Below, piece by piece: positions 29,575-44,350 of a stretch of 64,000 bases of DNA (position 1 is its first letter; each line of letters starts with the position of its first letter). The position numbers and the translations under genes were made by a program. Where the stretch lies: assembly GCA_963790475.1 (NCBI GenBank), contig CAWBOS010000012.1, positions 320,001 to 384,000 of the forward strand, read 5' to 3'. The notes under the pieces were generated by a model. That model made no database searches. It saw nothing but the letters and a program-made list of their open reading frames with translations, and was not told where the DNA came from. This stretch comes from an uncultured delta proteobacterium. GTDB taxonomy: Bacteria > Desulfobacterota > RBG-13-43-22.

Positions 29575-31710
29575 ATGGAAATCAAGGATGGCCATTATAT
29601 CTCTACCTGCGGTCTTGACTGCGGATCCCGCTGTCTTCTCAAGGTTCAGGTAGAGGGAGGAAAGGTAAAAAAGATTACCACCGATGACCAACCGGGGCCC
29701 GGCCTGAAGGCCTGTGCCAGGGGACTCTCCCAGCGGGAAGTCCTGTACGCCGAAGACCGCCTGAGATTTCCGATGAAGAGGGTGGGGGAGAGGGGCAGCG
29801 GCCGGTTCGAAGCCATATCCTGGGAAGAAGCCCTCGATCAAATCGCCAAAGAACTTCGAAGGGTCAAGGATCAACATGGGCCCGATTCCGTTTTGTTTTT
29901 AGGCCATTCCGGTTCTTCGGGCGCCCTGCACAGCACCGGGACACGTACCGGAACCGGACGCCGCTTCTTTTCCCTCTTCGGCGGGAGCACCGCTACCTGG
30001 GGCAATACCTCTCTGGAAGGGGGACTTTTTTCCTCCCAGATGACCTTCGGGACGCCCTATAACAAGAATTCCCGGGATAACCTTCTTCACTCTAAATTGA
30101 TCATCCTCTGGGGATGGAACCCCCTGGAGACGCGCTTCGGCCCGGATACGGTCCATTACCTCGATCAGGCCAAGAAGAATGGAACCCCCTTTATTTGTGT
30201 GGACCCCCGTCTTAATCCCACCGGCCGACATCTGGCTGCGCAATGGATTCCCATCCGCCCGGCCACAGATACGGCCATGCTCATCGCCATGGCCTATGTC
30301 CTGATCGAAGAAGACCTCTATGATCACCAGTTTGTTGAAAAATACACCTCCGGCTTTGATTGGTTTGAGGAATATGTTATGGGAGGTGAAGACAATCAGC
30401 CCAAGACGCCCGACTGGGCCGAAAAACGGACCGGGGTCCCTTCCGACACCATTGTCCAGCTGGCACGTGATTATGCCCTTCAAAAACCAGCCGCCCTCAT
30501 TACGGGATGGGCACCGGGACGAACGGCTTACGGGGAACAGTTTCACCGGGCCGCCTCCGTTCTGGCGGCCCTGACCGGCAACATCGGAATAAAAGGGGGA
30601 CATGTAGCCGGAGGAACCGACGCCATGACCGTGGGATATCTACCCGGTCTGCCAAAGCCCAAAACCCATTTTCCCCTGGTCCATGTCTCCGATCTATACG
30701 ACCTTCTTCTCCGGGGCAAAGCAGGCGGATTTCCCGGCGACATCAAGGTGCTTTATATTTTGGGCTGCAATCTCTTAAACCAGTGGTTGAATATCAATAA
30801 GGGGGTTAAGGCCCTGGGAAGGCCGGAACTGATTGTCGTTCACGAACTTTTCATGACGCCTACGGCACGCTTTGCCGACCTGGTACTTCCCGTAGCCCAT
30901 TTCCTGGAGAGGCAGGATATCGGCCAACCCTGGGGTGGCGGGCCGTACAATATTATCATGGAAAAGGCCGTGGCCCCCCTGCCTCAGGTGAAGTCCGATC
31001 TGGATATCTTCACCGAACTGGCCTTTCGTTTGGGCATCAAAGGATACAATGATAAAACGGAGGATGAATGGCTCCAGGAATTTTTCTCCGCCGTCCCAGG
31101 CCTCCCGGATTATACCCAATTAAAAGACAAAAAGGTCTATCACTACCGGATTCAGGAACCCTGGGTAGCTTTTCAGAAAGAGGTTGAAGATCCGGCCAAC
31201 CACCCCTTCCCGACCCCATCCGGGAAGATCGAAATTTACAGCCAAAAGATGGCCGAAATGGGTGATCCTTTGATCCCGCCCGTACCCAAATATATTGCGC
31301 CTTGGGAAGGGCCTCAGGATCCCTTGACGAAAGACTTTCCCTTCCAGTTGGTAAGTCCTCATTCCAGAGGAAGGATCAACTCTTCGCTGGACAACATCCC
31401 CCGCCTTAAAGCTTTGGCCGATGATGACCTGTGGCTCAACCCAATGGATGCGGCCGGGCTTGGGGTTCAATCGGGAGAAGAAGTCTGCGTGTATAACGAG
31501 CGGGGAAAAATGATTCGGAAAGTCAAGGTGACGGACCGGATCATGCCCGGGGTGGTGAGCCTGGATGCCGGGGCCTGGTACAGTCCCGATGAACAGGGAA
31601 TAGATCAGGGCGGTTGCGTCAATGTCCTTACGATAGATAAAAAATCACCGGCAGGGGACTTTCCCTGCAACAGTTGTCTCGTTCAAGTGAGCGGTAAAAG
31701 AAAGGAGTGA
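29575..31710 (+). CDS. Molybdopterin oxidoreductase, DMSO reductase family catalytic subunit
   Basis: CGLDCGSRC...C Fe-S motif, RLRFPMKRVGERGSG, WGWNP, TPSGKIEIYS; no twin-Arg leader. Confidence 0.9.
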   Translation: MEIKDGHYISTCGLDCGSRCLLKVQVEGGKVKKITTDDQPGPGLKACARGLSQREVLYAEDRLRFPMKRVGERGSGRFEAISWEEALDQIAKELRRVKDQHGPDSVLFLGHSGSSGALHSTGTRTGTGRRFFSLFGGSTATWGNTSLEGGLFSSQMTFGTPYNKNSRDNLLHSKLIILWGWNPLETRFGPDTVHYLDQAKKNGTPFICVDPRLNPTGRHLAAQWIPIRPATDTAMLIAMAYVLIEEDLYDHQFVEKYTSGFDWFEEYVMGGEDNQPKTPDWAEKRTGVPSDTIVQLARDYALQKPAALITGWAPGRTAYGEQFHRAASVLAALTGNIGIKGGHVAGGTDAMTVGYLPGLPKPKTHFPLVHVSDLYDLLLRGKAGGFPGDIKVLYILGCNLLNQWLNINKGVKALGRPELIVVHELFMTPTARFADLVLPVAHFLERQDIGQPWGGGPYNIIMEKAVAPLPQVKSDLDIFTELAFRLGIKGYNDKTEDEWLQEFFSAVPGLPDYTQLKDKKVYHYRIQEPWVAFQKEVEDPANHPFPTPSGKIEIYSQKMAEMGDPLIPPVPKYIAPWEGPQDPLTKDFPFQLVSPHSRGRINSSLDNIPRLKALADDDLWLNPMDAAGLGVQSGEEVCVYNERGKMIRKVKVTDRIMPGVVSLDAGAWYSPDEQGIDQGGCVNVLTIDKKSPAGDFPCNSCLVQVSGKRKE

Positions 31711-31781
31711 CATTCGAGTAAAATAAGGAACGTGCCGCCTTTTTCTTTTAGGCCAATGCATAGTCGGCTTCTTATAGTCTC

Positions 31782-32084
31782 TTATTGTTTTGAAGAAGTT
31801 ATAAGCTCTTTAATAAAATTGCGTTTGCTATGAATTAATGTGAGAACTTCGATCTTATCGGGAAATATTTCATAAATTAGACGGAATGAGTAAATGAATA
31901 ACTCTCTGATGTTGGGGTCTTCTATTTCGGGTACAATTCGTCCCGCCTTTGGGAAGGAATTTAATGTTTCAGTTTTTTCAATGATTTCCAATGAAACTTT
32001 TTTTGCATATAATTTTGAGTCCCTGGCAATGTAATCATGGATTTGCTTTAAATCGAGCTTTGCCGGTTTTGTCCATCTTACCAC
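31782..32084 (-). CDS. RelE/ParE-family toxin
   Basis: WTKPAKLDLKQIHDYIARDS...FPKAGRIVPE...RELF...RLIY. Confidence 0.85.
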   Translation of the reverse strand: MVRWTKPAKLDLKQIHDYIARDSKLYAKKVSLEIIEKTETLNSFPKAGRIVPEIEDPNIRELFIYSFRLIYEIFPDKIEVLTLIHSKRNFIKELITSSKQ

Positions 32085-32257
32085 GATTCCATCTCTCTTT
32101 TTAATTCTTCAATAGAAAGTGAATCCCCACATTCGGCTGCCGCTCTGCCTTTATTGATCTTGTCGATGACATAAAGTTCGTACATAATATCATCAATGTT
32201 TGCTGTTTCCGGCAAGTTTGAAATGACTTTGATTGCTTCTTGTTTTAAAGTTTCCAT
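32078..32257 (-). CDS. Cognate antitoxin of the RelE/ParE toxin
   Basis: Small acidic ORF (LPETANIDDIMYELYV) overlapping the toxin start. Confidence 0.75.
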   Translation of the reverse strand: METLKQEAIKVISNLPETANIDDIMYELYVIDKINKGRAAAECGDSLSIEELKREMESW

Positions 32258-32272
32258 AACCAAGACCTCCAT

Positions 32273-32443
32273 CTACTCGCTTACTTCATAAAAGGTTTCA
32301 ATATGAAAACGAATTGCAGATTTAACATCAGACAAAGCTTCTTCGTAGGTTTCTCCCTGTCCTACGACAACCCCCTTAATTCCCAATGGATAGGCAACAT
32401 AGCCGTCGGGATGTTTTTCAACAACGATCTTATATTGTTTCAT
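32273..32443 (-). CDS. HicB-like antitoxin (56 aa, absent from the ORF track)
   Basis: Manual translation MKQYKIVVEKHPDGYVAYPLGIKGVVVGQGETYEEALSDVKSAIRFHIETFYEVSE; QGETYEEAL is the HicB signature. Confidence 0.75.
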   Translation of the reverse strand: MKQYKIVVEKHPDGYVAYPLGIKGVVVGQGETYEEALSDVKSAIRFHIETFYEVSE

Positions 32444-32520
32444 AAAATCCCTTTAATAATTTTTAAATAATGATACCATGTTTTTTGAATTCTCACCAGC
32501 ATTTCCTGACGGTGGCTTTC

Positions 32521-32592
32521 AGATAACGTTAATGTCCCCAAGGAAGGGCCTAGGCTTTGGATGTTAACCACATCACTCTGTTATCGGTCCGT
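32521..32592. repeat. attC-like spacer repeat, copy A
   Basis: TAAC-N15-GAAGGGCCTAGGCTTTGG-N13-CACTCTGTTATCGGTCCGT; near-identical blocks at 35487-35556. Confidence 0.7.
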
Positions 32593-32628
32593 AGCAACAT
32601 AAATAGGGGAATGGTCCCTCGCTCTCCC

Positions 32629-33285
32629 TTAACGTATATCGTAAATTGTTTTAACAGCGTAATACAAGGCCATGAACCCAAATATTATTAAGCAAAGATT
32701 AGAAAGAAGAATCAGCCATTTTTTTAATTGATCGTTTATTCTCTTTTTTAGTTTACTGACGATAAAAATAAGGGGAACAAACCAAAGCAACACTCCCAGC
32801 ATAATAAATGATACCGTTACGATCCCGTAATTTCTGTAATTTGGAAATTTATGATTCCAGATTAAGAAGAAATTCCCGGCCACAACAATCCATCCCACTA
32901 TGGTCAACGGATTGGATAAGGTGATTACAATACCGGAAATAAATGTGGTCAGTGGATTAGATTGAAAACGGGGTTTATTTTCTTCGATTTCCTGGTTCTT
33001 TCTTATGGAACTTATCGATGACACCCCAAGAACGATCAAAATGATTCCACAGACAATCCAAAGTACGATTTTTAAATAGTGATTGGTTGAAATGAGATTG
33101 GCAACTCCAATATAAACCAGGGTTATGTAAAAGATATCTGAAAGACAGGAACCCAAAGTGAAAATAGCACTATTTCTGAATCCATATTGAAGCGCTCTTT
33201 GACAAGCGATAATAGTAACTGAGCCCGGAGGAATCGCAACAACGATACCTAACAGAACTGCCGATAATAAATATTCAATTAACAT
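32629..33285 (-). CDS. LysE/RhtB-family translocator
   Basis: GIVVAIPPGSV...G...SD...ITLSNPLTIVGW; about 6 TM segments. Confidence 0.85.
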   Translation of the reverse strand: MLIEYLLSAVLLGIVVAIPPGSVTIIACQRALQYGFRNSAIFTLGSCLSDIFYITLVYIGVANLISTNHYLKIVLWIVCGIILIVLGVSSISSIRKNQEIEENKPRFQSNPLTTFISGIVITLSNPLTIVGWIVVAGNFFLIWNHKFPNYRNYGIVTVSFIMLGVLLWFVPLIFIVSKLKKRINDQLKKWLILLSNLCLIIFGFMALYYAVKTIYDIR

Positions 33286-33541
33286 ATTTACTCAAATCTA
33301 TTTTTCCCCTTTCGTACAGAAAAATGATTGACCCCAATGAGTCCTGTAGTTTCTGTTAGGGCCTAACGAGGCACAGGGCAAAGTCATCAATTGAAAGACA
33401 TCCTGGTCAAGTCATTATTTCATTGACGTCCCCCAACTCCACTAGCTCCTCAGCCGCAGTGCGGTATGGAGCAAACTCAAAATGTGACGCCAAACTCCGA
33501 CATTGGCCTATGCGAATGTGTGAGAGTCGTTACCAACGCTG

Positions 33542-33853
33542 TTATGCGCAGTTTTCTTCGCTGCGTAGTCTATCTTCAATATCAATCAACAACTTGATAT
33601 ATTTAACCGCCGTCCTGTTTTGAATACCACAGAGTCTCGTTGGGGTTAGTCCTGGAGATATCAGATTCTTAATTGTGTCCTGTGCCAAGGACTTCAACTT
33701 GTTGAATTCCTGTCTAAAGGTAAGAGGAACCTCAGTTGTCGGAAGGAGGATTAAATTCACTGCTTCATTTGCCAACCTTCGAATGGCATCTCCCTCGTGA
33801 GTTGCCATTCGAAGGTTGATTTCGCTTAGTTTTTCTAAGAAGTACAATTTCAT
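33542..33853 (-). CDS. Hypothetical protein (cassette-like)
   Basis: Probable ATG at 33853 just after GTTCGGC; stop lies inside GCATAAC; start uncertain. Confidence 0.5.
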   Translation of the reverse strand: MKLYFLEKLSEINLRMATHEGDAIRRLANEAVNLILLPTTEVPLTFRQEFNKLKSLAQDTIKNLISPGLTPTRLCGIQNRTAVKYIKLLIDIEDRLRSEENCA

Positions 33854-33929
33854 TTTAGCCGAACAAAATTGCGCATAAATTTCCCAACACAAAAGGAGTG
33901 TTATCCAAGGCAAAATTTCGGTGAGTGCA

Positions 33930-34346
33930 TTAAGGCACAAACCTTTTAGAATCATCAAAAACTTTTTTTCGTCTTAGAATTTTCATAACCATTCCGACAA
34001 GAAACAGAATTACAATAGGGCTGATGAAAATAAGAAAAAAAGGAACTTTAGTTTTCTCTGAAATCCAATTGAGAACATTTAGCCCTGCCATATACATCCA
34101 AGAGATTCCCCAAGAACCAATGCCAAATAAAATTAGAATCCAGACAAAAGCTGAACTGATGCCCAGCGCATAAAGTAATCCTTCAATTGAAAACTTCTTT
34201 TTCTCCTTGGCAAGCTCATACAATCCTCCAAGGCAAGCAACTATTGATGCCAAAATGAAAAAGGAACCAATAAGATATAATGAATTTTTCATCCTTCCTT
34301 GAAATTGGTATAGAGATTTCCGAGTTTCAATCGTCATGTAAAACAA
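33930..34346 (-). CDS. Hypothetical membrane protein (about 3 TM)
   Basis: Three hydrophobic stretches; AT-rich. Confidence 0.55.
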   Translation of the reverse strand: MFYMTIETRKSLYQFQGRMKNSLYLIGSFFILASIVACLGGLYELAKEKKKFSIEGLLYALGISSAFVWILILFGIGSWGISWMYMAGLNVLNWISEKTKVPFFLIFISPIVILFLVGMVMKILRRKKVFDDSKRFVP

Positions 34347-34379
34347 TTTCAGATAGCGTATGCGGCACAGGCGAAAAAA

Positions 34380-35003
34380 TTAGTTTTTAAGCACTCCGTT
34401 TGTTTCGTTGTTAGGTAAAGTTTTTTGAAGGTAACCAATGTTTTTTCGAATAGATGTCTCTAAGAATTTGTAGGCTTGGTCATAATCCTGACCAAAATCG
34501 ACATAGCAAATATTTTTAAGCTCCGATGGTACTTCAACCTTCGATAATAACACTGGAAATATCCTAATCTTTCTGGACTTTGCATATTCATATTCATTGG
34601 ACACCCAGGGGGAGTTGATTGAGCTTTGAGAAATAAAGTAGATAAAGAAATTTGCTTTACTTATGGCCTGTTGGATAGTCTGTTGGATGTTATCTCCGAC
34701 GGCTAATATTTCTTCTGGAAGGTATATTCGATACCCATCCTTTTTTAAGTCATTCACAATTTTCATCGCGGTGTCTTTATCAGAAAAAGAAAACGACACA
34801 AATATGGAGGCCTTCCTTCGAATCATTCTTGAAAAAGCATAAACCATAGAAATGCCCATAATCGTAGCGACTATGGAGGATAACAATCCCAGTACAGTTT
34901 CGAAAGAGATCAGTTTTTGGAGAAAGATGGCGAATGACACAACCACGGCGCTTATGCTAACAATGATGGGCCAGTTGTCCCAAAACGATTTTGATTTTTT
35001 CAT
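34380..35003 (-). CDS. Membrane-anchored TIR-domain protein (2 TM + TIR)
   Basis: Two N-terminal hydrophobic helices, then IFVSFSFSD...VGDNI...AISKANFFIYFISQSSINSPWVSNE...IFPVLL...YVDF. Confidence 0.85.
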   Translation of the reverse strand: MKKSKSFWDNWPIIVSISAVVVSFAIFLQKLISFETVLGLLSSIVATIMGISMVYAFSRMIRRKASIFVSFSFSDKDTAMKIVNDLKKDGYRIYLPEEILAVGDNIQQTIQQAISKANFFIYFISQSSINSPWVSNEYEYAKSRKIRIFPVLLSKVEVPSELKNICYVDFGQDYDQAYKFLETSIRKNIGYLQKTLPNNETNGVLKN

Positions 35004-35007
35004 AACT

Positions 35008-35445
35008 TCATCCAATCCAATTTATGACAAAGATCAGGCATAATAAGCCATATATAAACGGAAGTGCAATACCAAAGAAAATGTTCAGATTATCTTGATC
35101 CTTCCACCCCAGCTTTCTTATGAGTGTAGAAATCCCCCAAATTCCTAATACAAACGCTGTTAAAACCCAAGGCACTACTAGAAATTTACCTTTTAGAGTC
35201 CCTACCAATCCAGGATTCAAGCCGGAGTTGGACAGGGAAACTATCTGGTCTGCCATGGTTGCACAATATGTTATGAAAATGACCAAGGCTGCTACGGCCA
35301 TCTCCAAACCAATGGCAAGATCCTCTTTCTTAAAGGCCGTATGTTGATCGTTTCTACTCACTGTCTTAAGAAAAACACTGAACCCAACAGTAAACAAGGG
35401 TACGATAAAGTATTTAAAATAGGGCGATGCTAAAATATTTTCCAT
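35008..35445 (-). CDS. Hypothetical 4-TM membrane protein immediately upstream of the TIR gene
   Basis: 145-aa ORF with four hydrophobic segments; stop 4 nt before the TIR ATG. Confidence 0.7.
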   Translation of the reverse strand: MENILASPYFKYFIVPLFTVGFSVFLKTVSRNDQHTAFKKEDLAIGLEMAVAALVIFITYCATMADQIVSLSNSGLNPGLVGTLKGKFLVVPWVLTAFVLGIWGISTLIRKLGWKDQDNLNIFFGIALPFIYGLLCLIFVINWIG

Positions 35446-35483
35446 ATGTTTATTGCGGTATCATGGCCATCGAAAGAAATTTC

Positions 35484-35556
35484 GTCTAACGGTTTGAGCG
35501 CAGGAGAAGGGCTTAGGCTTTGGGTGCCAAACTCAAGCACTCTGATATCTGTCCGT
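35484..35556. repeat. attC-like spacer repeat, copy B
   Basis: GTCTAAC-N15-GAAGGGCTTAGGCTTTGG-N14-CACTCTGATATCTGTCCGT; on the minus strand it ends GTTAGAC just before the next gene. Confidence 0.7.
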
Positions 35557-35659
35557 TGAGGGCATGCCTTGATAAAGAAAATATGGGAAGTGTCCCTCGT
35601 TCCAAAACCGGTACGAATTTTAGATCCTACGCAAAAATACGATTTTTTCGCTTGTTTTT

Positions 35660-36946
35660 TTAGATCTTTCGAACCCTTACAGCTCGCCAAGATTCACAGT
35701 TTTTCTTTTTATCAAATGAAGGTTCGGCATCGAAAAAAACGATATCACCATTTAAAACCGAGCTTGGTAATTCATTCTGAAAACAAATAGCTGAAAGTTC
35801 TTCTTTTGAGTTTATAAAGCAAATCGGTCTGTCAGAAACAATTGATATCTTTCCTCGCAACCCCTTTTTAAATTCACGTTTTGAGCCACTAAAATTAGAG
35901 CCTTCTAGCTGCTGGAGCCATAATTTTTTACAAGCTATTAGGCAAGAGGAAGTATTTTGAGGTACATTTATTGAAGAATTTTCTTTTTCAAGAGCCTGAA
36001 GTGATGAATTTATAATAGAGGGTATAGGCCAATTATTCTCCAGTCGAATCAACTTAACTAATTGGTAATGATAAAGAGCTTCTTCTTTTTGATTAAAATG
36101 AACACAAAGATCGCCAATATCTTGAAATAGTTTAACTAACATAGTTAGTTTTGAACACAATAAAGCGGCTTGACAAAATTTCTGCAAGGCATCCTTTTTA
36201 TTATCAGAATCGTTTAATACTTTACCGTATTCATGCAATAACCACCAATCCGGGCGTCTGATAGAACATAACTTTTGGTAAATTGCAATTGACTCATCAT
36301 ATTTTTTTAAGTGCCGATATGAAAGCGCTTTTAAGCGTGAAAAAAACTTAGCATTTTTTGGATATTTTCCTTCAAGTGCAATGCATTGCGACAATGCTGA
36401 ATCTGGGTCATTATGTTCTAATAGGGAATTTATTTTAAAATTATGCCATATTTCTTGGTCGCACCAACCTTCTCTGCCATCTTCAATTTTAATTGGTTTA
36501 TCAGAAAGGCTTGCGGGATCAATCTTGTCAACCCAGTCCGCTATGCAATCCCAATCGCCGTGCTTTTTTGCAAATTTAAGAACTTTGAAGACTGTTAATT
36601 TGTTTGCAAGAAAATCAGGATTTAATGCCATAATAGAATTCGCGATATTAACGACGGTGCTAAGCAGTGAATCTTCTGGAAGCTTATTAAACTGGCCTTG
36701 TATTCTTGTCCAAACAACCTCTTTTCGGCCCCATTCAAAGTCGGGAAATTTCGTTATAAGTTCATTAGCCAAAACTAACGCTTCGTCAAAAAGGTGAAGT
36801 TTCCTGAGGCAAGAAAGATAACCTGCCCCATCAAAGGAATCTTTTGTTTTTTCCCATAATGATTTATAAATTGGTAGCGCCTCATCGTGCCGTGAGTCCT
36901 TTCGAAGCTGATTAGCTTTGAATTTTAACTCTTGGATATTTTCCAC
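35660..36946 (-). CDS. TPR-repeat protein with C-terminal OB/cold-shock-like domain
   Basis: Helical repeats (ALPIYKSLWE, ALSYRHLKKYDESIAIYQKL, YGKVL...ALQKF, ALYHYQL) and a beta-rich tail (GKI...CFI...GDIVFF...SFDKKK...WRAVRV). Confidence 0.75.
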   Translation of the reverse strand: MENIQELKFKANQLRKDSRHDEALPIYKSLWEKTKDSFDGAGYLSCLRKLHLFDEALVLANELITKFPDFEWGRKEVVWTRIQGQFNKLPEDSLLSTVVNIANSIMALNPDFLANKLTVFKVLKFAKKHGDWDCIADWVDKIDPASLSDKPIKIEDGREGWCDQEIWHNFKINSLLEHNDPDSALSQCIALEGKYPKNAKFFSRLKALSYRHLKKYDESIAIYQKLCSIRRPDWWLLHEYGKVLNDSDNKKDALQKFCQAALLCSKLTMLVKLFQDIGDLCVHFNQKEEALYHYQLVKLIRLENNWPIPSIINSSLQALEKENSSINVPQNTSSCLIACKKLWLQQLEGSNFSGSKREFKKGLRGKISIVSDRPICFINSKEELSAICFQNELPSSVLNGDIVFFDAEPSFDKKKNCESWRAVRVRKI

Positions 36947-36959
36947 TTGAAAATAGCCC

Positions 36960-37886
36960 CTATGCTAAAACAGATAGAGTTGTCTTAAAGTGCAACTTGG
37001 CCACTTTATTAAGCATTTCTTTGCCATGAATTCTTACGAAATATTTTGCAGCATTAATTGTATCGTCTGAGGCACCCTTTGGTAACTGAATGCCAAATAG
37101 CTCTGAAAGCTTGGAAAGTTTTGTTAGGAACCTATCTCGGGCGAGAATCGATGCCGCAGCAACAGCAATATTTTTTTCTGCTTTTGTCATTTGAAATAAC
37201 TTTATCCGCTTTCCTCTTTCTTGAAGCTTAGATTGAATAAACTTCTTGTCAGCAAATTGATCCGCCAATACTTGATTGCAATCAACTTTTGTTAGCAATT
37301 CTTCTATTGCTTTGGCGTGACCCCAGGCAAGTAAAACATTTAGGTTTTTGTTTTCTATTTTAAATTTAGAATACAGTTCGTTATACTTTTCTGGAGCAAT
37401 CTCGATGATAGAACATTTTCCGTTGACAATAGTTGGAATTATTTTAGCAAGCTCATTTACTTTATTATCCGATAACTCTTTGCAATCTCGTACTCCACGG
37501 GCTTGAAGATCTTTCGACATTGTTGAATTCACGAAAACTGCAGAGGCGACAAGAGGCCCAAAGTAGTCACCTTTCCCAGATTCATCTGAACCAATTAGAG
37601 GGGGCCCAAGTGTAAATGCATTTTTTTGTGTACTTAAATCTTCATTTTGTCCACTGATGCATTGCTGGACAATGGTGGCGCTTTCACCTTTAAGTTGTGA
37701 GTAATCAATTTTTAATATCCCTTTTTTATTCTGAAAAATTCTTATAACACCTGACCATTGAAGATTGAATACGGAGAATTGTATTCCATAATCTATGGAT
37801 GTATAAGGACGAACTGATAATCCACCACTTTCGAGCATGGGTTTTATTTTATCAAAAAGTTCAATAGGGGTTTTGACGTTAAACAT
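36960..37886 (-). CDS. rnhC: Ribonuclease HIII
   Basis: IGSDESGKGDYFGPLV, GVRDCK, DQF, KAE, AVAAASILAR, LPKGAS, VAKLHFKTT. Confidence 0.92.
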   Translation of the reverse strand: MFNVKTPIELFDKIKPMLESGGLSVRPYTSIDYGIQFSVFNLQWSGVIRIFQNKKGILKIDYSQLKGESATIVQQCISGQNEDLSTQKNAFTLGPPLIGSDESGKGDYFGPLVASAVFVNSTMSKDLQARGVRDCKELSDNKVNELAKIIPTIVNGKCSIIEIAPEKYNELYSKFKIENKNLNVLLAWGHAKAIEELLTKVDCNQVLADQFADKKFIQSKLQERGKRIKLFQMTKAEKNIAVAAASILARDRFLTKLSKLSELFGIQLPKGASDDTINAAKYFVRIHGKEMLNKVAKLHFKTTLSVLA

Positions 37887-37902
37887 AAATCACCACCTAA
37901 AA

Positions 37903-39006
37903 TTAAAGTCTAAAAACAGTACTGAAATATGTAAAAAGTTCTTCTTCTATTTTGAAAATATCATTTACCAGTGAAAGTGCTTTATCCGGTGTTTCAACTT
38001 TTGTAACAAAACTGCTATCGCTATGCATCATGAAATTCCTATATTGGTCAAGAGAAACACGTAATTTATCAAGATATGTGCCAACGTGTTTTTCTTTTGC
38101 GCAAATGGCAACATGTTTTGGGTCACTTTTGCTGTTTAATATAGAGAAATTCGCCGTTTTTAAGGAAAAATGATTTAGCGGCAATAACCCAATTGCAATT
38201 AACAGTTTTTTGCAAAAACCCTCAAATGCCTTAGAGGATGGCATAACAAAGGCTGAGTATTCAGGTAATACCACCTCTGAAAGACATAAGCATTTTGAAG
38301 CAATGAACCAATTTTTATCATGGAGATCCAGAAAATCATAGGAACCTTTGAGGCTTTTTATAACCTCATCTTCAGCGAGATTAATGAGGTCAGGTGTAGA
38401 TCTTGAAACGAAAAAATCTAAAGCGGATTGGTCTGCAGATACAAATCGAGCTGCAACATCCTTATTTGAGGGTTGAGCCATTTTTTCGATATGGTCACAA
38501 CAATTGTCGAAAAAGTAATCTGATTTCCCTTGCAGCATCAATCTGCCATTAGTGAATTGGGTTATGGTTATATTACCTTCGAGATTGGACAATTTAGACC
38601 TATAAGAAATATATTGGGAAGGAGAGTTTGTTGTAACACAATGTGGAGCTATTTGCGTCCAAGATGCTTTAATGCGATCTCTAATATCCATAATCATGAT
38701 ATCATAGGTTGCACTACATGCCTTTACTTCTGGAGTAGAAGTAATCGATGAAAATACTGGGTGATTCTCCAAACGCGATTTAAGCTCTTCCATTTCTTTA
38801 CGAAGTAGGTTCGGTTTGCCTTGAATGGATATCGGGCCTGTGGAAAAAATATTTATAATTGTCCTATCTGCAAGATTGGAAATATCAATCCTAAGTTTAT
38901 TTGGGTCTTTAGAATTCGATACAATTGCTAGTTGATATCCCTTTTGCTGACAATAAGTCTCTATTTCTTTATGAATTGATTCTTGTGTCGCATTAATTAT
39001 TGTCAT
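37903..39006 (-). CDS. RNase LS / RnlA(LsoA)-family HEPN endoribonuclease
   Basis: Two TBP-like repeats (IFSTGPISIQGK; TQFTNGRLMLQGK), LPEYSAFVMPSSKAFEGFCKKLL and an intact HEPN R-X4-H motif (YRNFMMH); AAGGAGG RBS. Confidence 0.82.
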   Translation of the reverse strand: MTIINATQESIHKEIETYCQQKGYQLAIVSNSKDPNKLRIDISNLADRTIINIFSTGPISIQGKPNLLRKEMEELKSRLENHPVFSSITSTPEVKACSATYDIMIMDIRDRIKASWTQIAPHCVTTNSPSQYISYRSKLSNLEGNITITQFTNGRLMLQGKSDYFFDNCCDHIEKMAQPSNKDVAARFVSADQSALDFFVSRSTPDLINLAEDEVIKSLKGSYDFLDLHDKNWFIASKCLCLSEVVLPEYSAFVMPSSKAFEGFCKKLLIAIGLLPLNHFSLKTANFSILNSKSDPKHVAICAKEKHVGTYLDKLRVSLDQYRNFMMHSDSSFVTKVETPDKALSLVNDIFKIEEELFTYFSTVFRL

Positions 39007-39394
39007 TTGGATAACCTCCTTTTAGCGATTTAATATGGGAAAGGGGACGTTCTCCACTTCATTCACTTTTGTTTAATGTCTTCATCTCTTGAACATTAAT
39101 GACTATTTCAGTTGTTCCACTCCAGTCTAGGTGGCAATCTCAATCATTGGTACCATACGCTAGGTTTTGGCTGACTTGATTATCAGCGGATTCCCCCCAA
39201 TCCGAACAAGCAGACACGTTTCTCTCCCCGCTCCTACTGCGACCTCCTTGAGTTCCGTCAGAGATAACAAAGTTTCTTGATTTAAGAAATTGAATGGCCG
39301 GCAGAAAATAACGGTTGATTGCTTGGGTGGATCTTTTGAGATATGGATCCGGACCATGAATCTCCTTAAGATCGTAAAGAAAGGTATTTGAAAG

Positions 39395-39586
39395 ATTAAC
39401 AGGTTGCTGAAAAAGGCCCATCTATCCCGCCAAAGGCGGGATTGCCCTCGTCCCACGCAGCCTTTTGGCGGGGCATGCTCATTGTCACGTACTTCAATGT
39501 ACGACTCATTCCTTGGGATTTCGAGCGCTTTGTATGTGAACCTTTTTGAACAACCTGTAATTTTGAGTTTTCAGCATCCTGTTAAT
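39395..39586. mobile_element. MITE-like element (~190 bp)
   Basis: Terminal inverted repeats ATTAACAGGTTGCTGAAAA / TTTTCAGCATCCTGTTAAT (18/19 match); no transposase. Confidence 0.75.
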
Positions 39587-39652
39587 GGTGGGAGAATTGT
39601 AGAATATAACTGGCTAATTTGTAAAGGATTTTATTTTCTTATTTTTTGATGC

Positions 39653-39687
39653 TTGACAAATATTAGCAAATTTGCTAACATTCTATC
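39653..39687 (+). promoter_or_regulatory. Sigma70 promoter and palindromic operator of the HigBA-like module (probably leaderless)
   Basis: TTGACA(39653)-17 nt-TAACAT(39676), ATG 6 nt later; perfect palindrome TTAGCAAATTTGCTAA at 39663-39678. Confidence 0.75.
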
Positions 39688-40011
39688 ATGAATTATTCGA
39701 TAGAATATTTCCATGCTCGCGTCAAAGCTGAGATAGAAAAATGGCCAGATGATTTATTGGCTGATTATGCGCGGATAGTGGAATTATTAATGGAATTCGG
39801 GCCAAATTTGCGAATGCCGCACTCGCGGGCTCTGGGTGGCGGCCTTTTCGAGTTAAGGCCTCGAGGGCGAGAGGGTATTGGACGGGCATTTTACTGCTTT
39901 ATCATCGGTCAGCGCGTTGTGATACTCCACGCTTTTTTGAAAAAAACACAGGATACCCCGGAACAAGAATTACGAATTGCCCGGAGAAGAATGAAAGAGG
40001 TACAGAAATGA
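39688..40011 (+). CDS. RelE/HigB-like (Gp49/DUF891-type) toxin
   Basis: MPHSRALGGGLFELRP...GRAFYCF...ILHAFLKKTQDTP. Confidence 0.88.
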   Translation: MNYSIEYFHARVKAEIEKWPDDLLADYARIVELLMEFGPNLRMPHSRALGGGLFELRPRGREGIGRAFYCFIIGQRVVILHAFLKKTQDTPEQELRIARRRMKEVQK

Positions 40012-40367
40012 CTGATTTAAAATATCAACCCGTTTCCCATGACCATACATCTTTCCTCAAAAAAGCCCTTAAGCGGAAAGGATTCAGGAAAGTCTACGAG
40101 GAATTGGAAGAAGAGTACGCCCTTACCCGGGAAATGCTTTCCGCACGCGCCAGATTCGGCTTAACCCAGGAAGCCGTTGCGGAGCTGATGGGAACGACCA
40201 AAAGTGCGGTTTCACGTTTGGAGGCATCCCACAAACATGCGCCATCCCTCGCAACCCTCAAGAAATATGCTCAAGCCGTCGGCTGTCGCCTTGAAATCAA
40301 GCTGGTTCCCACCTCCCGCTTAACCAAAGGCAAAACGCGTGCCGTAAAAAAACAGGCTGCTGGTTAG
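40008..40367 (+). CDS. XRE-family HTH antitoxin (HigA-like)
   Basis: GLTQEAVAELMGTTKSAVSRLE...PSLATLKKYA; ATGA overlap with the toxin. Confidence 0.88.
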   Translation: MTDLKYQPVSHDHTSFLKKALKRKGFRKVYEELEEEYALTREMLSARARFGLTQEAVAELMGTTKSAVSRLEASHKHAPSLATLKKYAQAVGCRLEIKLVPTSRLTKGKTRAVKKQAAG

Positions 40368-42345
40368 CCCATCTTCCGCAGTTTGGAGAAAAAATCAAGA
40401 AAAACGTGATGAATTTTTAGGAATTGTTAAATGATTTCAAATCCTGATCTTTGAAAATTGGATGTAGTGAAGACCACCCCCTTGCCAGGTGCTGTGGGAA
40501 CGGAGATAATGGGGTTATGTATCTCCGGCGTGCAACCAAAAAGAAAGGTGGAGCGGAGTACGAGAGCTGGCTTTTAGTTGAGTCGGTCCGTACTGCCCGA
40601 GGGCCCCGTCAGCGAGTAGTGGCGACGATAGGGAAACTTCCTGGCCTTGATCGGGAAGAGCGGATAGGTTGGGAGGAGATCGGACGGATTCTTTCCGGAA
40701 AGCCTCTACCTGGACCTGAACTGTTTGAGCAGGGGGAAGACCCCCCATCTTGGGCCACGGTCAATATCCATGGCGTAAGCGTCGAGCGACTCAGAGGCTT
40801 CGGCGATGTCTATTTGGGGTTGCTTTTGTGGAACAAACTGGGGCTTGCCAGGTTCTGCCGAGATCATATTCCTTCCAACCGGGAAGAGATTCCTTGGTCG
40901 ATCATGGCGTCTATTTTAGTTCTTGGACGCTTTTGCGCCCCATCGTCGGAATTACAGATGGCCGAGTTTTGGTATGGCAAGACGGCGTTAGACGATCTGC
41001 TGGGAGTGGCCGACTATAAGATCAATGAGGATCGGCTTTATCGTGCCCTGGATGCCTTGCTTCCCCACAAGGATGCCTTAAGCCGTCACCTTCAGGAGCG
41101 TTATGGGGAACTGTTCGGCAGTAGCTTTGATTTTTTGTTTTATGACATAACCTCCACCTATTTTGAGGGGACCGCCAAGGGCAATGCCCAGGCCAAGAGG
41201 GGTTACAGCCGGGACAGTCGTCCAGATTGTCCCCAGGTCTGCATCGGCCTGGTGGCCACCCGAGAGGGCTTTCCCATAGCCTTTGAGGTTTTTGACGGCA
41301 ATCGATGTCACGACGACCCAAGAGATGGTTCAGATGATGGAGGCCAAATACGGCCAAGCCAACCGGATCTGGGTTATGGATCGCGGCATGGTGAGTGAGG
41401 AGAATCTGGAGTTTATGCGCAAAGTCGGTGCCCGCTATTTGGTCGGCACCCCAAAAGTGATGCTGAAGAAGTTTGAGCAGCAGCTTTTCGAACAGAACTG
41501 GGAAGCGGTCCAACCTGATGTTGAGGTCAAGCTCTGTTGCTCGCCGGAAGGAACGGATGAAATCTTTGTCCTGTGCCGGTCTCAAGGCCGGAAGGAGAAA
41601 GAAAACGCCATTCTAAACCGCTTTTTGACCCGACTGGAAAGCCAACTGGATCACCTGGCCCGCCAGGCCGAAACCGGCAAGCTCCGAGACAAGCAGAAAG
41701 TCGAGCGGAGAATAGGGCGACTGCTGGAACAAAATAAACGTGCGGCCTCGTTGTTCAATATTACAGTCATAGAGACCGGTACCGGAAAAGACGCACCGCT
41801 TTCCCTAGAAGTCAAGAAGAACGAACAACGGCAACAGTGGGCCTTGGAGACCGGCGGTAGCTACATCCTGCGCACCAACTGGACCGAAAGTGACCCGAAA
41901 GTCCTATGGAACACCTACATCCAACTGACGGAAGTGGAAGATTCATTCCGTACCGAGAAACATGATCTGGGAATGCGACCGATCTTCCATCAAAAACAGG
42001 AACGGACCCAGGCTCATATCCTGGTCTGCTTCTTGGCGCTGACTATGTGGCGAACGCTCCAGCAATGGATGAAAGCCTCGGGACTCGGTACCGCCCCAAG
42101 AAAGCTGTTGGAGGAGTTGCGGGATTTGAAATCTTTGGATGTGCTACTACCGGCGCGGGAGAGAACCCTCCGGCTCAGAATGGTGGCTACTCCCTCAAAG
42201 GAACTCAAAGTGCTGCTTCAGAGATTGAAAATTCTGCTCCCCAACAAACCAAAAATTATTGAAAATGTAGTGAAGAAAATGCCCTAATTCTTGTCGTAAC
42301 TATTTGATATCGCGTCTTCCATGCTTTCTAACTGCGGAAGATGGG
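40368..42345 (+). mobile_element. IS1634-family insertion sequence (1978 bp)
   Basis: Perfect 16-bp IRs CCCATCTTCCGCAGTT / AACTGCGGAAGATGGG; TTAG duplicated on both flanks (40364-40367, 42346-42349). Confidence 0.9.
40517..42287 (+). pseudogene. IS1634-family DDE transposase, frameshifted near 41305
   Basis: LVESVR...GPRQR, YDITSTYFEG, GYSRDSRPD, VFDGN | VMDRGM, VEDSFR..K..L.MRPIFH, AHILVCFLAL. Confidence 0.88.
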
Positions 42346-42436
42346 TTAGCTTTCGGAATAGTGGCGACTTGGACGGTCGGGCTACGTCGCCATCAGCATG
42401 ATGCATGTGTGAATAACTGGGACGGCCCTTTTATTT

Positions 42437-43714: not shown

Positions 43715-43954
43715 TTAATTTTCGATCTCTTGCTCGGCAAACCGTTCTCTTGATTCTCTAACCGACTCAAGAATGTCTTTTGTGGTTGCTTTGGTCCTTA
43801 TCCCTGGAACGTCAAAGGGTGATTTTGTACTTTTCCTAAAAATAATTGAAAAGATTTCTCCGCCTCTCCGCTTAATAACCACTTCTTCAGTTTTTGCGAT
43901 ATTAAGAACATCGGATAGGCGTTGTCTCGCTTCAGAATAGGTATATACTTTCAT
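43715..43954 (-). CDS. Phd/YefM-family antitoxin
   Basis: YTYSEARQRLSDVL...EEVVIKRR. Confidence 0.85.
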   Translation of the reverse strand: MKVYTYSEARQRLSDVLNIAKTEEVVIKRRGGEIFSIIFRKSTKSPFDVPGIRTKATTKDILESVRESRERFAEQEIEN

Positions 43955-43960
43955 AATAAT

Positions 43961-44350
43961 TTACTCCAAAATGGTAATTCCTATTTCCCGTGCAACTCTT
44001 TGCATCCCAAGGTCGAGGGTAAGCAGCGGGCCTCGGAGGTTAAAGGCGCATTCTAAAAAATAAGCATCATAGGCATATAAATTAAATTTTATCGTAATTT
44101 TTAAGGCCGATTTTATGTCGGTATGTCTCAAATCAACCGGTATCTGTTGCACAAGCTCCCACACTGCCAATACTTCATCTTTCTTCAAAGCGGTTTTTTT
44201 CATCATTGCTGTTAATGCATTTCCAATTTCGAAAGGCAATATATCAGGAGCAATTAAATCATGGCCTTCAGTAAGTCGAATGATTCTGCCTTTTTCGGGC
44301 TCGTTTAAGGCAACGGCTATGAAGATATTTGTGTCAGCTATTATTTTCAT
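43961..44350 (-). CDS. vapC: VapC-family PIN-domain toxin (toxin gene first)
   Basis: IIADTN...FEIGNAL...YAYDAYFL...LLTLD acidic PIN residues. Confidence 0.88.
   Translation of the reverse strand: MKIIADTNIFIAVALNEPEKGRIIRLTEGHDLIAPDILPFEIGNALTAMMKKTALKKDEVLAVWELVQQIPVDLRHTDIKSALKITIKFNLYAYDAYFLECAFNLRGPLLTLDLGMQRVAREIGITILE

Follow-up and report, generated by a model that had tools for sequence, protein, structure and literature searches.

A three-gene cassette of an RnlA-like HEPN protein, an RNase HIII, and a TPR-cold-shock protein as a predicted system of the TOTE class

The anti-T4 systems RnlA-RnlB and LsoA-LsoB of Escherichia coli contain a toxin with the three-domain fold NTD-NRD-HEPN and an Rx4H motif, and E. 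coli RnlA is tied functionally to the host RNase HI. Fusions of RNase LS-type HEPN domains with RNase H-fold or TBP-like domains have also been noted and were proposed to attack RNA in RNA:DNA duplexes (Anantharaman et al., 2013, PMC3710099). In the TOTE conflict systems, named for their TPR, OB, TBP, and Effector components, RNase H domains are frequent (Bell et al., 2025, PMC12458937). In addition, the PADLOC candidate PDC-M16 includes PDC-M16A, a RecD-like SF1 helicase that ends in a TBP-TOTE domain, and the TPR protein PDC-M16B.

Here, we describe a trio of genes found in a 64-kb window, that is, the whole stretch of DNA that was analyzed. The sequence-only reading of this DNA had regarded the trio as an architecture without a name. 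That claim was not upheld: the trio fits the named, predicted TOTE class, and a sister variant corresponds to PDC-M16. The trio is a real member of this known predicted class.

Organization of the locus and domain composition of the proteins

The genes are co-directional on the minus strand, as had been claimed, in the order ORF1 (37903..39006; 367 aa, ATG start), ORF2 (36960..37886; 308 aa), and ORF3 (35660..36946; 428 aa), with gaps of 16 nt (37887..37902) and 13 nt (36947..36959) between them on the same strand. A Shine-Dalgarno-like AGGAGG, read directly in the sequence, lies on the minus strand at 39015..39020, upstream of the ORF1 ATG and separated from it by 8 nt. The GC content is 0.35–0.40 across positions ~32000–39000 versus ~0.51 in the remainder of the window, which bears out the description of the trio as AT-rich. 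The surrounding island of toxin-antitoxin (TA) and TIR genes also proved to be real and comprises ParE, a Gp49/HigB-like gene with an HTH partner, a PIN gene with Phd, and a TM-TIR protein. The translations contained the motifs quoted earlier: ORF1 has LPEYSAFVMPSSKAFEGFCKK and RNFMMH, and ORF2 has DESGKGD and ADQF.

According to its structural model, ORF1 has the RnlA fold, made up of an HEPN domain and two TBP-like domains, and its RNase activity is predicted. The two N-terminal TBP-like domains (NTD and NRD) are followed by a C-terminal HEPN domain with R323-x4-H328 (RNFMMH). The Pfam families RnlA-toxin_DBD (1.1e-6, 29.5 bits) and RnlA_toxin (1.8e-6, 28.5 bits) narrowly exceeded their curated cut-off of 27, while RnlA_toxin_N (0.0072, 17 bits; cut-off 24) and DUF3378 (0.0064) remained below theirs. 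In a Foldseek search with the AF2 model (pLDDT 87.5), the best PDB fold was E. coli RnlA 4i8o (E 4.7e-12, TM 0.51–0.56 over the full length); 7aex, covering NRD-HEPN, gave a TMt of 0.67, and LsoA 5hy3 was matched with E 3.6e-5, so the RnlA/HEPN fold proposed from the sequence was recovered. Thus, ORF1 combines the NTD-NRD-HEPN(DBD) fold of the RnlA/LsoA family with an apparently catalytic-type Rx4-6H HEPN motif. R323 and H328 were unchanged in 23/23 aligned homologues; the genome loci were retrieved via ORF1 motifs, the HEPN motif among them, so its conservation there in part reflects the way in which they were selected. In the metagenome trios, which were retrieved without using ORF1, Rx4H was present in the ORF1-type protein of 38 of 39.

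ORF2 is apparently a complete RNase HIII, predicted from its sequence to be active. It matched TIGR00716 rnhC at 6.5e-58 (196.3 bits against a cut-off of 161.2; model positions 8–284 of 284), Pfam RNase_HII at 1.2e-32, and the PDB RNase HIII 2d0a at 1.6e-26, and it consists of an N-terminal domain and an RNase HII/HIII catalytic domain. The residues D101, E102, D209, and E237, which we take to be the catalytic DEDE tetrad of RNase HIII, were unchanged in 19/19 trio homologues; the DE pair was aligned with that of 2d0a in the HMMER alignment, and the RNase HIII motifs were detected in 39/39 metagenome trios. The earlier assignment of an RNase HIII with intact catalytic motifs holds. ORF2 is the sole rnhC of the genome and is additional to the three other RNases H encoded there, one of type HII and two of type HI.

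The N-terminal domain of RNase HIII is TBP-like. The N-terminal half of ORF1 aligned to TBP chains in Foldseek with probabilities of 0.8–0.95 and E ~1e-2, ranked after RnlA and LsoA. Neither ORF1 nor ORF2 matched Pfam TBP-TOTE (PF22721) at E<=0.1, and hhalign against one TBP-TOTE domain gave non-significant probabilities of 0.3% and 7%; therefore, the label "TBP" rests on the fold and on the homology of the domains with those of RnlA and RNase HIII. The PADLOC models yielded no convincing match to either protein.

ORF3 was composed of a TPR superhelix (residues ~1–346) and a C-terminal cold-shock-type OB barrel (~360–427), and is hereafter referred to as TPR-CSD. The AF2 model (pLDDT 92.2) showed helices followed by five strands, and the profile of the C-terminal domain matched CspA at 7.8e-7, in agreement with the TPR and OB/cold-shock domains assigned at first reading. 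The PDB fold search returned generic TPR matches. Over its full length, ORF3 matched the PADLOC model PDLC01170 ([quoted passage not shown]) at 3.7e-33; matches to PDC-M16B (1.2e-11) and Pfam DUF7017 (7.1e-10) were also obtained. The ESM Atlas pointed to Pfam S1CSD-TOTE-2 with a value of 0.84, which is below the 0.9 mark and is treated as a lead only.

Conservation and spread of the cassette

The 28 loci of the genome collection were spread over at least 10 phyla, and 7 of the records were archaeal. The RNase HIII gene lay directly downstream of the RnlA-like gene in all 25 genome loci with room for it, and TPR-CSD was the third gene in 21/22, being split or truncated in 3 of the 21; in one locus (L026), TPR-CSD was absent altogether. 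A reciprocal metagenome scan seeded on TPR-CSD recovered the trio again in 39/41 close loci with room. Such an identical gene order in dozens of unrelated contigs places the trio far beyond chance, and its conservation extends across phyla in both bacteria and archaea. The trio was the commonest form among the loci retrieved, in two scans that had both started from proteins of the trio or from close relatives of these. In addition, the pairwise-identity matrices of the three proteins were correlated (Spearman 0.86–0.92), and ORF1 was absent from 40/40 relatives searched, 13 of them of the same genus. The trio is thus a conserved, horizontally moving cassette, the three genes of which are inherited together across bacteria and archaea. 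Only one plasmid record carried the cassette, and no copy was found in phage records or viral contigs. It is also present in the cultured strain Reichenbachiella agariperforans DSM 26134 (locus L024).

Fusions of the components were also detected. In 7 loci, a single ORF of 598–688 aa, directly upstream of TPR-CSD, comprised the RnlA-like part, with Rx4H near residue 320, and the RNase HIII catalytic domain. The occurrence of the two RNases as one protein fits the earlier suggestion that the RnlA-like protein has a dedicated RNase H partner. In one protein of 754 aa (P0049), RNase HIII was fused to TPR-CSD.

No further conserved gene was found beside the trio among the loci. Among the 133 ORFs beside the 28 genome loci were 3 methylases, 3 AAA_23/SMC-type ATPases, 3 PIN, 2 RhuM, and 2 nSTAND3 proteins; however, the flanks were mixed, and housekeeping families such as ABC transporter, inositol monophosphatase, short-chain dehydrogenase, and DNA polymerase A were as frequent as the defence families, so the enrichment in defence-island genes, judged by raw counts, is modest.

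Relationship to TOTE systems and to RnlA-type modules

The assignment to the TOTE class is based on TPR-CSD, in which TPR is joined to an OB domain in the AF2 model, in PDLC01170, and in the CspA profile match, and on the neighbors of its homologues. At one locus (L113), a TPR-CSD related to ORF3 (phmmer 2e-28, residues 1–425) adjoins a helicase with a TBP-TOTE domain at 5.2e-24; this TPR-CSD matched both PDLC01170 and PDC-M16B, and its neighbor matched PDC-M16A at 1e-172. At another (L060), a TPR-CSD (6e-17 to ORF3) adjoins an AEP-TOTE protein (1.6e-35), and other distant homologues adjoin Lon-RNase HIII fusions and an RNase HIII-helicase fusion. ORF3 is therefore homologous to TPR-OB proteins located beside Pfam-labelled TOTE proteins, and the trio also carries effector domains, the HEPN Rx4H and the DEDE of RNase HIII, the latter of the RNase H type that is frequent in such systems. 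ORF3 thus represents the core TPR-OB protein of the TOTE class, and TPR-CSD is the constant partner of many different effector proteins. As far as the consulted parts of the TOTE description show, the trio shares with that class the TPR-cold-shock fusion as a core, and nuclease effectors including an RNase H-type one; judged by fold, its partners apparently carry TBP-like domains as well. It differs in the nature of these TBP-like domains, which belong to an RnlA-type HEPN toxin and to RNase HIII and fall below the Pfam TBP-TOTE model. The B component of PDC-M16 is a TPR protein related to ORF3, whereas the helicase PDC-M16A is missing from the window; with PADLOC, it was not matched in ORF1, ORF2, or four neighboring ORFs, and only the B-type TPR protein was found.

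The trio resembles RnlA and LsoA in the fold, in the Rx4H motif, and in the link to an RNase H. However, it has no RnlB/LsoB partner, its RNase H is of type III and operon-encoded, its third gene is TPR-CSD, it is spread over archaea and many bacterial phyla, and ORF1 is only 12–15% identical to the solved RnlA and LsoA structures. The "two-headed" HEPN RNases and RNase LS fusions likewise link an HEPN RNase LS domain with RNase H or TBP-like domains, whereas their RNase H is of the caulimovirus-like RNase HI type, and an operon link to RNase HIII or TPR-CSD is not mentioned in the portion of the paper considered (PMC3710099). A cluster on the Bacillus sp. BR3(2024) megaplasmid NZ_CP152438.1 contains rnhC, TPR-CSD, an RnlA-family HEPN toxin, and an RnlB-family antitoxin. 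Its RNase HIII is 46% identical to ORF2, its TPR-CSD is 36% identical to ORF3, and its toxin is also 367 aa long. In contrast to the trio, the toxin comes last in the order of the three, an RnlB antitoxin is present, and the toxin is distant from ORF1 (27% over 145 aa, E 4.7e-8).

Proposed function and alternative explanations

We propose that the three genes form one horizontally mobile TOTE-class operon, which is predicted to be an anti-phage or anti-mobile-element conflict system; we assign this reading, including the following mechanism, a probability of approximately 55%. The defence role of the trio is inferred from gene content and distribution alone, and no bench work on the trio or on any TOTE system was found in the literature. 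TPR-CSD would act as a sensor or scaffold, in which the cold-shock domain may bind single-stranded nucleic acid and the TPR may contact either the partner proteins or a protein of the invader. Through their TBP-like domains, both RNases could dock on RNA:DNA hybrids, as RNase HIII does through its N-domain, or on the TPR. When replication or transcription intermediates of an invader are sensed, RNase HIII would cleave the hybridized RNA strand, with the HEPN domain cleaving RNA that is single-stranded, and the two cuts would stop the invader directly or via cell shutdown. At first reading, RNA:DNA hybrids or phage proteins had been put forward as the putative trigger of a predicted abortive infection. 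The dedicated RNase HIII would then fill the role that host RNase HI has for E. coli RnlA. More tentatively, the TPR-cold-shock protein and TBP-like domains might be a general innate sensor of the RNA:DNA hybrids or primer-like intermediates of invaders, which gates swappable effectors and, in the trio, licenses an attack by two RNases, in which RNase HIII acts on the hybrid and the HEPN domain on displaced or nearby RNA. If this sensor-gated action of two RNases is true, the trio would represent an operon-encoded version of the unexplained dependence of RnlA on RNase HI, and the need for no antitoxin would be accounted for.

The alternative that survives best, a rather unlikely one in our estimation, is a TA or addiction module, in which the RnlA-like HEPN protein is the toxin and RnlB is replaced by a proteic antitoxin, consisting of TPR-CSD by itself or together with RNase HIII. 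Such a module would mainly stabilize the island, with defence arising through decay of the antitoxin as in E. coli rnlAB. The RnlA fold of ORF1, the location of the cassette amid other TA pairs, and the short intergenic gaps, which suit co-translation at fixed ratios, are consistent with this explanation, as are three two-gene forms (L041, L058, and L059) in which the RnlA-like gene and TPR-CSD occur without RNase HIII. The reported absence of an adjacent RnlB was also corroborated: 8 small ORFs within or beside the trio had no Pfam match at E<=1, and a Bacillus RnlB query matched nothing at E<=10, either in the window or in 115 related loci. A genome-wide search with PF15933 returned nothing above the cut-off, although this search was weak, as the E. 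coli control was also silent. However, the TPR-CSD family is also the fixed partner of helicases, a primase-polymerase, and Lon fusions and occurs in a Cas1-adjacent setting, and none of these partners is a toxin that calls for an antitoxin; on the Bacillus megaplasmid, RnlB accompanies TPR-CSD and RnlA, so that RnlB and TPR-CSD are not interchangeable there. Both observations weaken the suggestion that the TPR-OB protein had replaced the antitoxin, and it is unlikely that TPR-CSD is an RnlB substitute and nothing more. Moreover, to our knowledge, labile antitoxins are unlike a 428-aa protein with a nucleic-acid-binding domain.

A housekeeping or stress operon acting on R-loops, primers, embedded ribonucleotides, or RNA turnover, with no role in conflict, appears highly improbable. 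RNase HIII has a housekeeping role in Bacillota, cold-shock domains work in RNA metabolism, and approximately half of the flanking genes elsewhere look housekeeping. Nevertheless, the RNase HII and two RNase HI already present in the host, the absence of the cassette from all relatives searched, its AT-rich island location, its sporadic occurrence with unrelated flanks in many phyla of both domains, and the toxin-type HEPN RNase aboard argue against this explanation. We give equally little credence to the view that the trio is not a stand-alone system but serves CRISPR-Cas (type III or adaptation) as an accessory module: the best PADLOC model of ORF3, PDLC01170, is grouped with cas-associated profiles, Cas1 lies directly downstream at one distant TPR-CSD locus (L054), and the AEP-TOTE protein at L060 matched cas-associated PrimPol models, but Tandem Repeats Finder detected no CRISPR-like array in the 64-kb window, cas families were absent from the 25 commonest Pfam/PADLOC families of the 133 flanking ORFs, and no conserved neighbor of any kind was found.

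So far, TOTE systems have been predicted from genomes only. The trio is a compact form, with three soluble proteins and clear catalytic residues, and, being carried by the cultured R. agariperforans strain, offers a practical entry point to this class. For annotation, the rnhC of the trio should not be taken as a housekeeping RNase H, and the label "type II toxin-antitoxin system RnlA family toxin" is misleading where RnlB is absent. The trio could reveal how the TPR-cold-shock protein senses infection and what the TBP-like domains recognize, and it could account for the link of RnlA-type toxins to RNase H, of which E. coli RnlA with its RNase HI is the known case.

The three genes and their surroundings

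The trio lies on the minus strand of the window and comprises ORF1, encoding an RnlA-like HEPN RNase (39006..37903, 367 aa), ORF2, encoding an RNase HIII (37886..36960, 308 aa), and ORF3, encoding a TPR protein with a cold-shock domain, TPR-CSD (36946..35660, 428 aa). The genes are separated by 16 and 13 nt, respectively, and AGGAGG is located 8 nt ahead of the ORF1 ATG. The GC content is 0.35–0.40 over approximately 32000–39000 around the trio vs. about 0.51 elsewhere in the window. The neighboring genes encode a ParE toxin, a Gp49/HigB-like protein paired with an HTH protein, a PIN protein paired with Phd, and a membrane/TIR set, along with a split DDE transposase. The sequence-only reading described the trio correctly in all the details checked. 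Promoter and terminator scans remained at the level of shuffled sequence (16 vs. 18.9 expected and 8 vs. 5.1 expected, respectively). No tRNA was found within 25000–48000 of the window, nor were convincing direct repeats found bounding the island. Comparison of 31000–41000 with Rfam gave only a RAGATH-20 match, which was sub-threshold (27.7 vs. 101.4 bits) and was rejected.

The island is bordered by three further pairs of the toxin-antitoxin type: ParE (2e-17), preceded by small ORFs (31782–32443), a Gp49/HigB-like protein (2.4e-26) with an HTH_3 protein (39688–40367), and a PIN protein (1.9e-11) with a Phd/YefM-like antitoxin (43715–44350). An IS-like element occupies 40365–42348, with 19-nt inverted repeats, 95% complementary, at 40365–40383 and 42330–42348. 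Between them lie two overlapping ORFs (40451–41398 and 41283–42287), the second of which matched DDE_Tnp_1 (3.3e-8); therefore, the transposase looks like one of the frameshifted or programmed-shift type. On the minus strand, 214 nt downstream of the trio, is a three-gene TM/TIR set (33930–35445). Its first gene encodes 145 aa without a convincing Pfam match, in a sequence resembling four TM helices, and overlaps by 8 nt with a 211-aa gene matching TIR_2 (8.2e-24), a number of ThsB models, and PADLOC PDC-S66 (2.2e-11); the third gene is a membrane-like ORF of 138 aa. These genes may be a separate TM/TIR defense set and may resemble the “2TM-1TM-TIR” type.

Domain identity of the trio proteins

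ORF2 encodes a full-length RNase HIII, scoring 196 bits against TIGR00716 (cut-off 161 bits) and matching PDB entry 2d0a at 1.6e-26. Its catalytic motifs, reported as intact from the sequence, are indeed so: D101, E102, D209, and E237 are invariant in 19/19 cassette homologs.

ORF1 cleared the Pfam cut-offs for RnlA_toxin and RnlA-toxin_DBD by a narrow margin. A PDB sequence search gave no match; only fold and profile searches were productive. An AlphaFold2 model built from 23 homologs (pLDDT 87.5) had Escherichia coli RnlA (4i8o) as its best solved fold, with an E-value of 4.7e-12 and a TM-score of 0.51–0.56 over the full length; the TM-score against 7aex, a fragment of RnlA comprising its second TBP-like domain (NRD) and HEPN, was 0.67. 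LsoA was the next fold (3.6e-5), and the N-terminal half of the model matched TATA-binding proteins with a probability of 0.8–0.95. R323 and H328 of the RNFMMH motif are invariant across the 23-sequence alignment.

For ORF3, the PDB sequence search also gave no match, and only fold and profile searches were informative. In its model (pLDDT 92.2), the TPR repeats form a superhelix, after which comes a barrel of five strands, and a profile of the C-terminal domain from 21 family members matched PDB cold-shock proteins (CspA, 7.8e-7), supporting the proposed TPR and OB/cold-shock-like architecture. The classic cold-shock motifs GFGFI and FFH are retained in more distant TPR-CSD members, whereas the trio subfamily has degenerate versions of them (CFI, ICF). 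The complex prediction for ORF1 and ORF3 scored 0.00 against a mark of 0.32, which counts neither for nor against an interaction.

Distribution and variants of the cassette

A genome-collection scan seeded on ORF1 motifs, including that of HEPN, recovered 28 loci from Deltaproteobacteria, Bacteroidota, Dehalococcoidia, Spirochaetia, Sumerlaeota, Nitrospirota, Planctomycetales, Ignavibacteriales, and WOR-3, as well as seven archaeal records. The RNase HIII gene adjoined the RnlA-like gene in 25/25 loci where the contig continues. The TPR-CSD gene came third in 21 of the 22 loci with enough contig, three of the 21 (L003, L028, and L018) having a split or truncated gene; in the remaining one, L026, both RNases were present and TPR-CSD was not found within reach. 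Since the HEPN motif had been part of this seed, the scan was repeated independently from the TPR-CSD end, in metagenomes, using a narrower alignment of distant TPR-CSD proteins (a broader one was too diverse as a seed). Among 47 loci with a close ORF3 homolog, 39 were full trios in the same order, six were cut by the contig start, and two were fused variants; all 39 trios had the RNase HIII motifs, and 38 of them the HEPN motif. Conservation of the trio across genomes is thus borne out by both scans.

The pairwise-identity matrices of the three proteins correlate at 0.86–0.92. No conserved flanking genes were found beyond the trio, and ORF1 was absent from 40/40 host relatives searched, 13 of them congeneric. 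We conclude that the trio is a self-contained, horizontally moving cassette that is real and widespread. Searches of phage records and viral contigs returned no cassette, and those of plasmid records only one.

In seven metagenome loci, a single ORF of 598–688 aa replaced ORF1 and ORF2, with Rx4H near residue 320 of the RnlA-like part. The exact DESGKG string is present in the RNase HIII part of six; the seventh, L050, lacks it but still has a match to the catalytic domain of RNase HIII. One search had found no ORF1 relatives longer than 643 aa, which is weak evidence; fused forms were later seen in metagenome contigs. Among the representative proteins, P0049 (754 aa) is an RNase HIII-TPR-CSD fusion; it is the sole example and might be an artifact of gene calling.

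Upstream of the RnlA-like gene, two further features were observed. In the archaeal contig L006, an extra 253-aa ORF (2235–2996) immediately precedes it and weakly resembles the N-terminal region of ORF1 (2.9e-6, residues 34–130). In L004, L008, L009, and L012 (three Dehalococcoidia and one Sumerlaeota), ORFs of 47–52 aa in the same position share MPLEVSNE(K/R)GYIIEIL, which may be a conserved leader or merely upstream DNA conserved among close relatives.

Class assignment and proposed mode of action

The TPR-CSD family exceeds the trio: a threshold of E<=1e-3 gave 657 cluster representatives, and one of E<=1e-30 gave 90. Its partners are diverse. They include an SF1 helicase ending in Pfam “TBP-TOTE” and matching PADLOC PDC-M16A at 1e-172 (L113), an “AEP-TOTE” primase-polymerase (L060), an RNase HI-like protein (L047), a NERD-UvrD helicase (L052), and a PD-(D/E)XK nuclease with a DUF7380-DUF4209 protein, PDC-S39 (L101). 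In L053 (3648–5975) and L103 (3539–5839), an approximately 770-aa fusion of a Lon-type S16 protease with an RNase HIII catalytic domain lies directly upstream of the TPR-CSD gene; no description of such a protease-RNase H effector was found in the literature searched. In L049 (7103–10828), a 1242-aa protein encoded downstream of TPR-CSD joins the N-terminal and catalytic parts of RNase HIII to a DinG/XPD-like helicase (PADLOC typeIV_DinG, 2.8e-60).

The Pfam labels of the L113 and L060 partners point to TOTE (TPR, OB, TBP, Effector), a class of predicted conflict systems whose founding paper is reportedly that of Aravind, Iyer and Burroughs from 2022. Bell et al. (2025; PMC12458937) define TOTE by TPR-CSD fusions and TBP proteins and state that RNase H domains are often part of these systems. 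The trio contains the TPR, OB, and effector elements, and the TBP element is recognizable by fold only: neither the Pfam TBP-TOTE model nor an hhalign comparison of a single TBP-TOTE domain with the profiles of ORF1 and ORF2 gave a significant match. The architecture, put forward in the sequence-only reading as a candidate novel system and not recognized there as a named one, fits a predicted class and is not categorically new. No TOTE mention beyond Bell et al. was found in the literature searched. That literature contained no description of an RnlA and RNase HIII operon and no match for a TPR, cold-shock and RnlA combination or for DUF7017, and TPR-CSD is absent from the main text of the CRISPRicity preprint. 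RNase HIII and HEPN were linked only in the 2013 HEPN survey, which describes RNase LS fusions with TBP-like and RNase H domains and proposes RNA:DNA duplexes as targets. We would class the trio as a probably new member of TOTE, a predicted class for which no experimental work was found.

TPR-CSD is constant while effectors vary, and two intact RNases are co-inherited with it, sometimes fused. We infer that TPR-CSD would be a sensing or scaffolding core rather than merely an antitoxin, with a two-RNase output; to this logic, together with the TOTE assignment, we give a probability of roughly 0.55. The TBP-like domains might anchor both RNases, either to RNA:DNA hybrids or to the TPR; RNase HIII would then cleave hybrid RNA and HEPN single-stranded RNA, resulting in direct interference or abortive infection. 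The specific hybrid-sensing model is tentative, with a rather low probability.

A toxin-antitoxin reading, with TPR-CSD as the antitoxin of the HEPN toxin, appears unlikely, given the constancy of TPR-CSD beside changing effectors. RnlB, the antitoxin of E. coli RnlA, has a family member in a Bacillus sp. BR3 megaplasmid (L116, NZ_CP152438.1 646241–650000), where rnhC, TPR(-CSD), and an RnlA-family toxin are followed directly in the row by the RnlB-family antitoxin; this four-gene relative differs from the trio in retaining RnlB, no homolog of which was found in the window or any of 115 loci. A CRISPR accessory role is very improbable, even though the name given to the TPR-CSD profile in PADLOC v2 is cas-associated and Cas1 (1.3e-92) directly follows a distant TPR-CSD gene in L054 (1941–4406), an adjacency that may account for that filing. 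The helicase variant is listed in PADLOC v2 as candidate PDC-M16, and nothing convincing was found among its models for ORF1 or ORF2. A housekeeping operon is equally hard to credit, although flanks of other trio loci mix defense-type and ordinary genes, as the host genome already has, outside the trio, one gene for RNase HII and two for RNase HI, making ORF2 an extra copy. The trio is a good experimental entry point to the predicted class.
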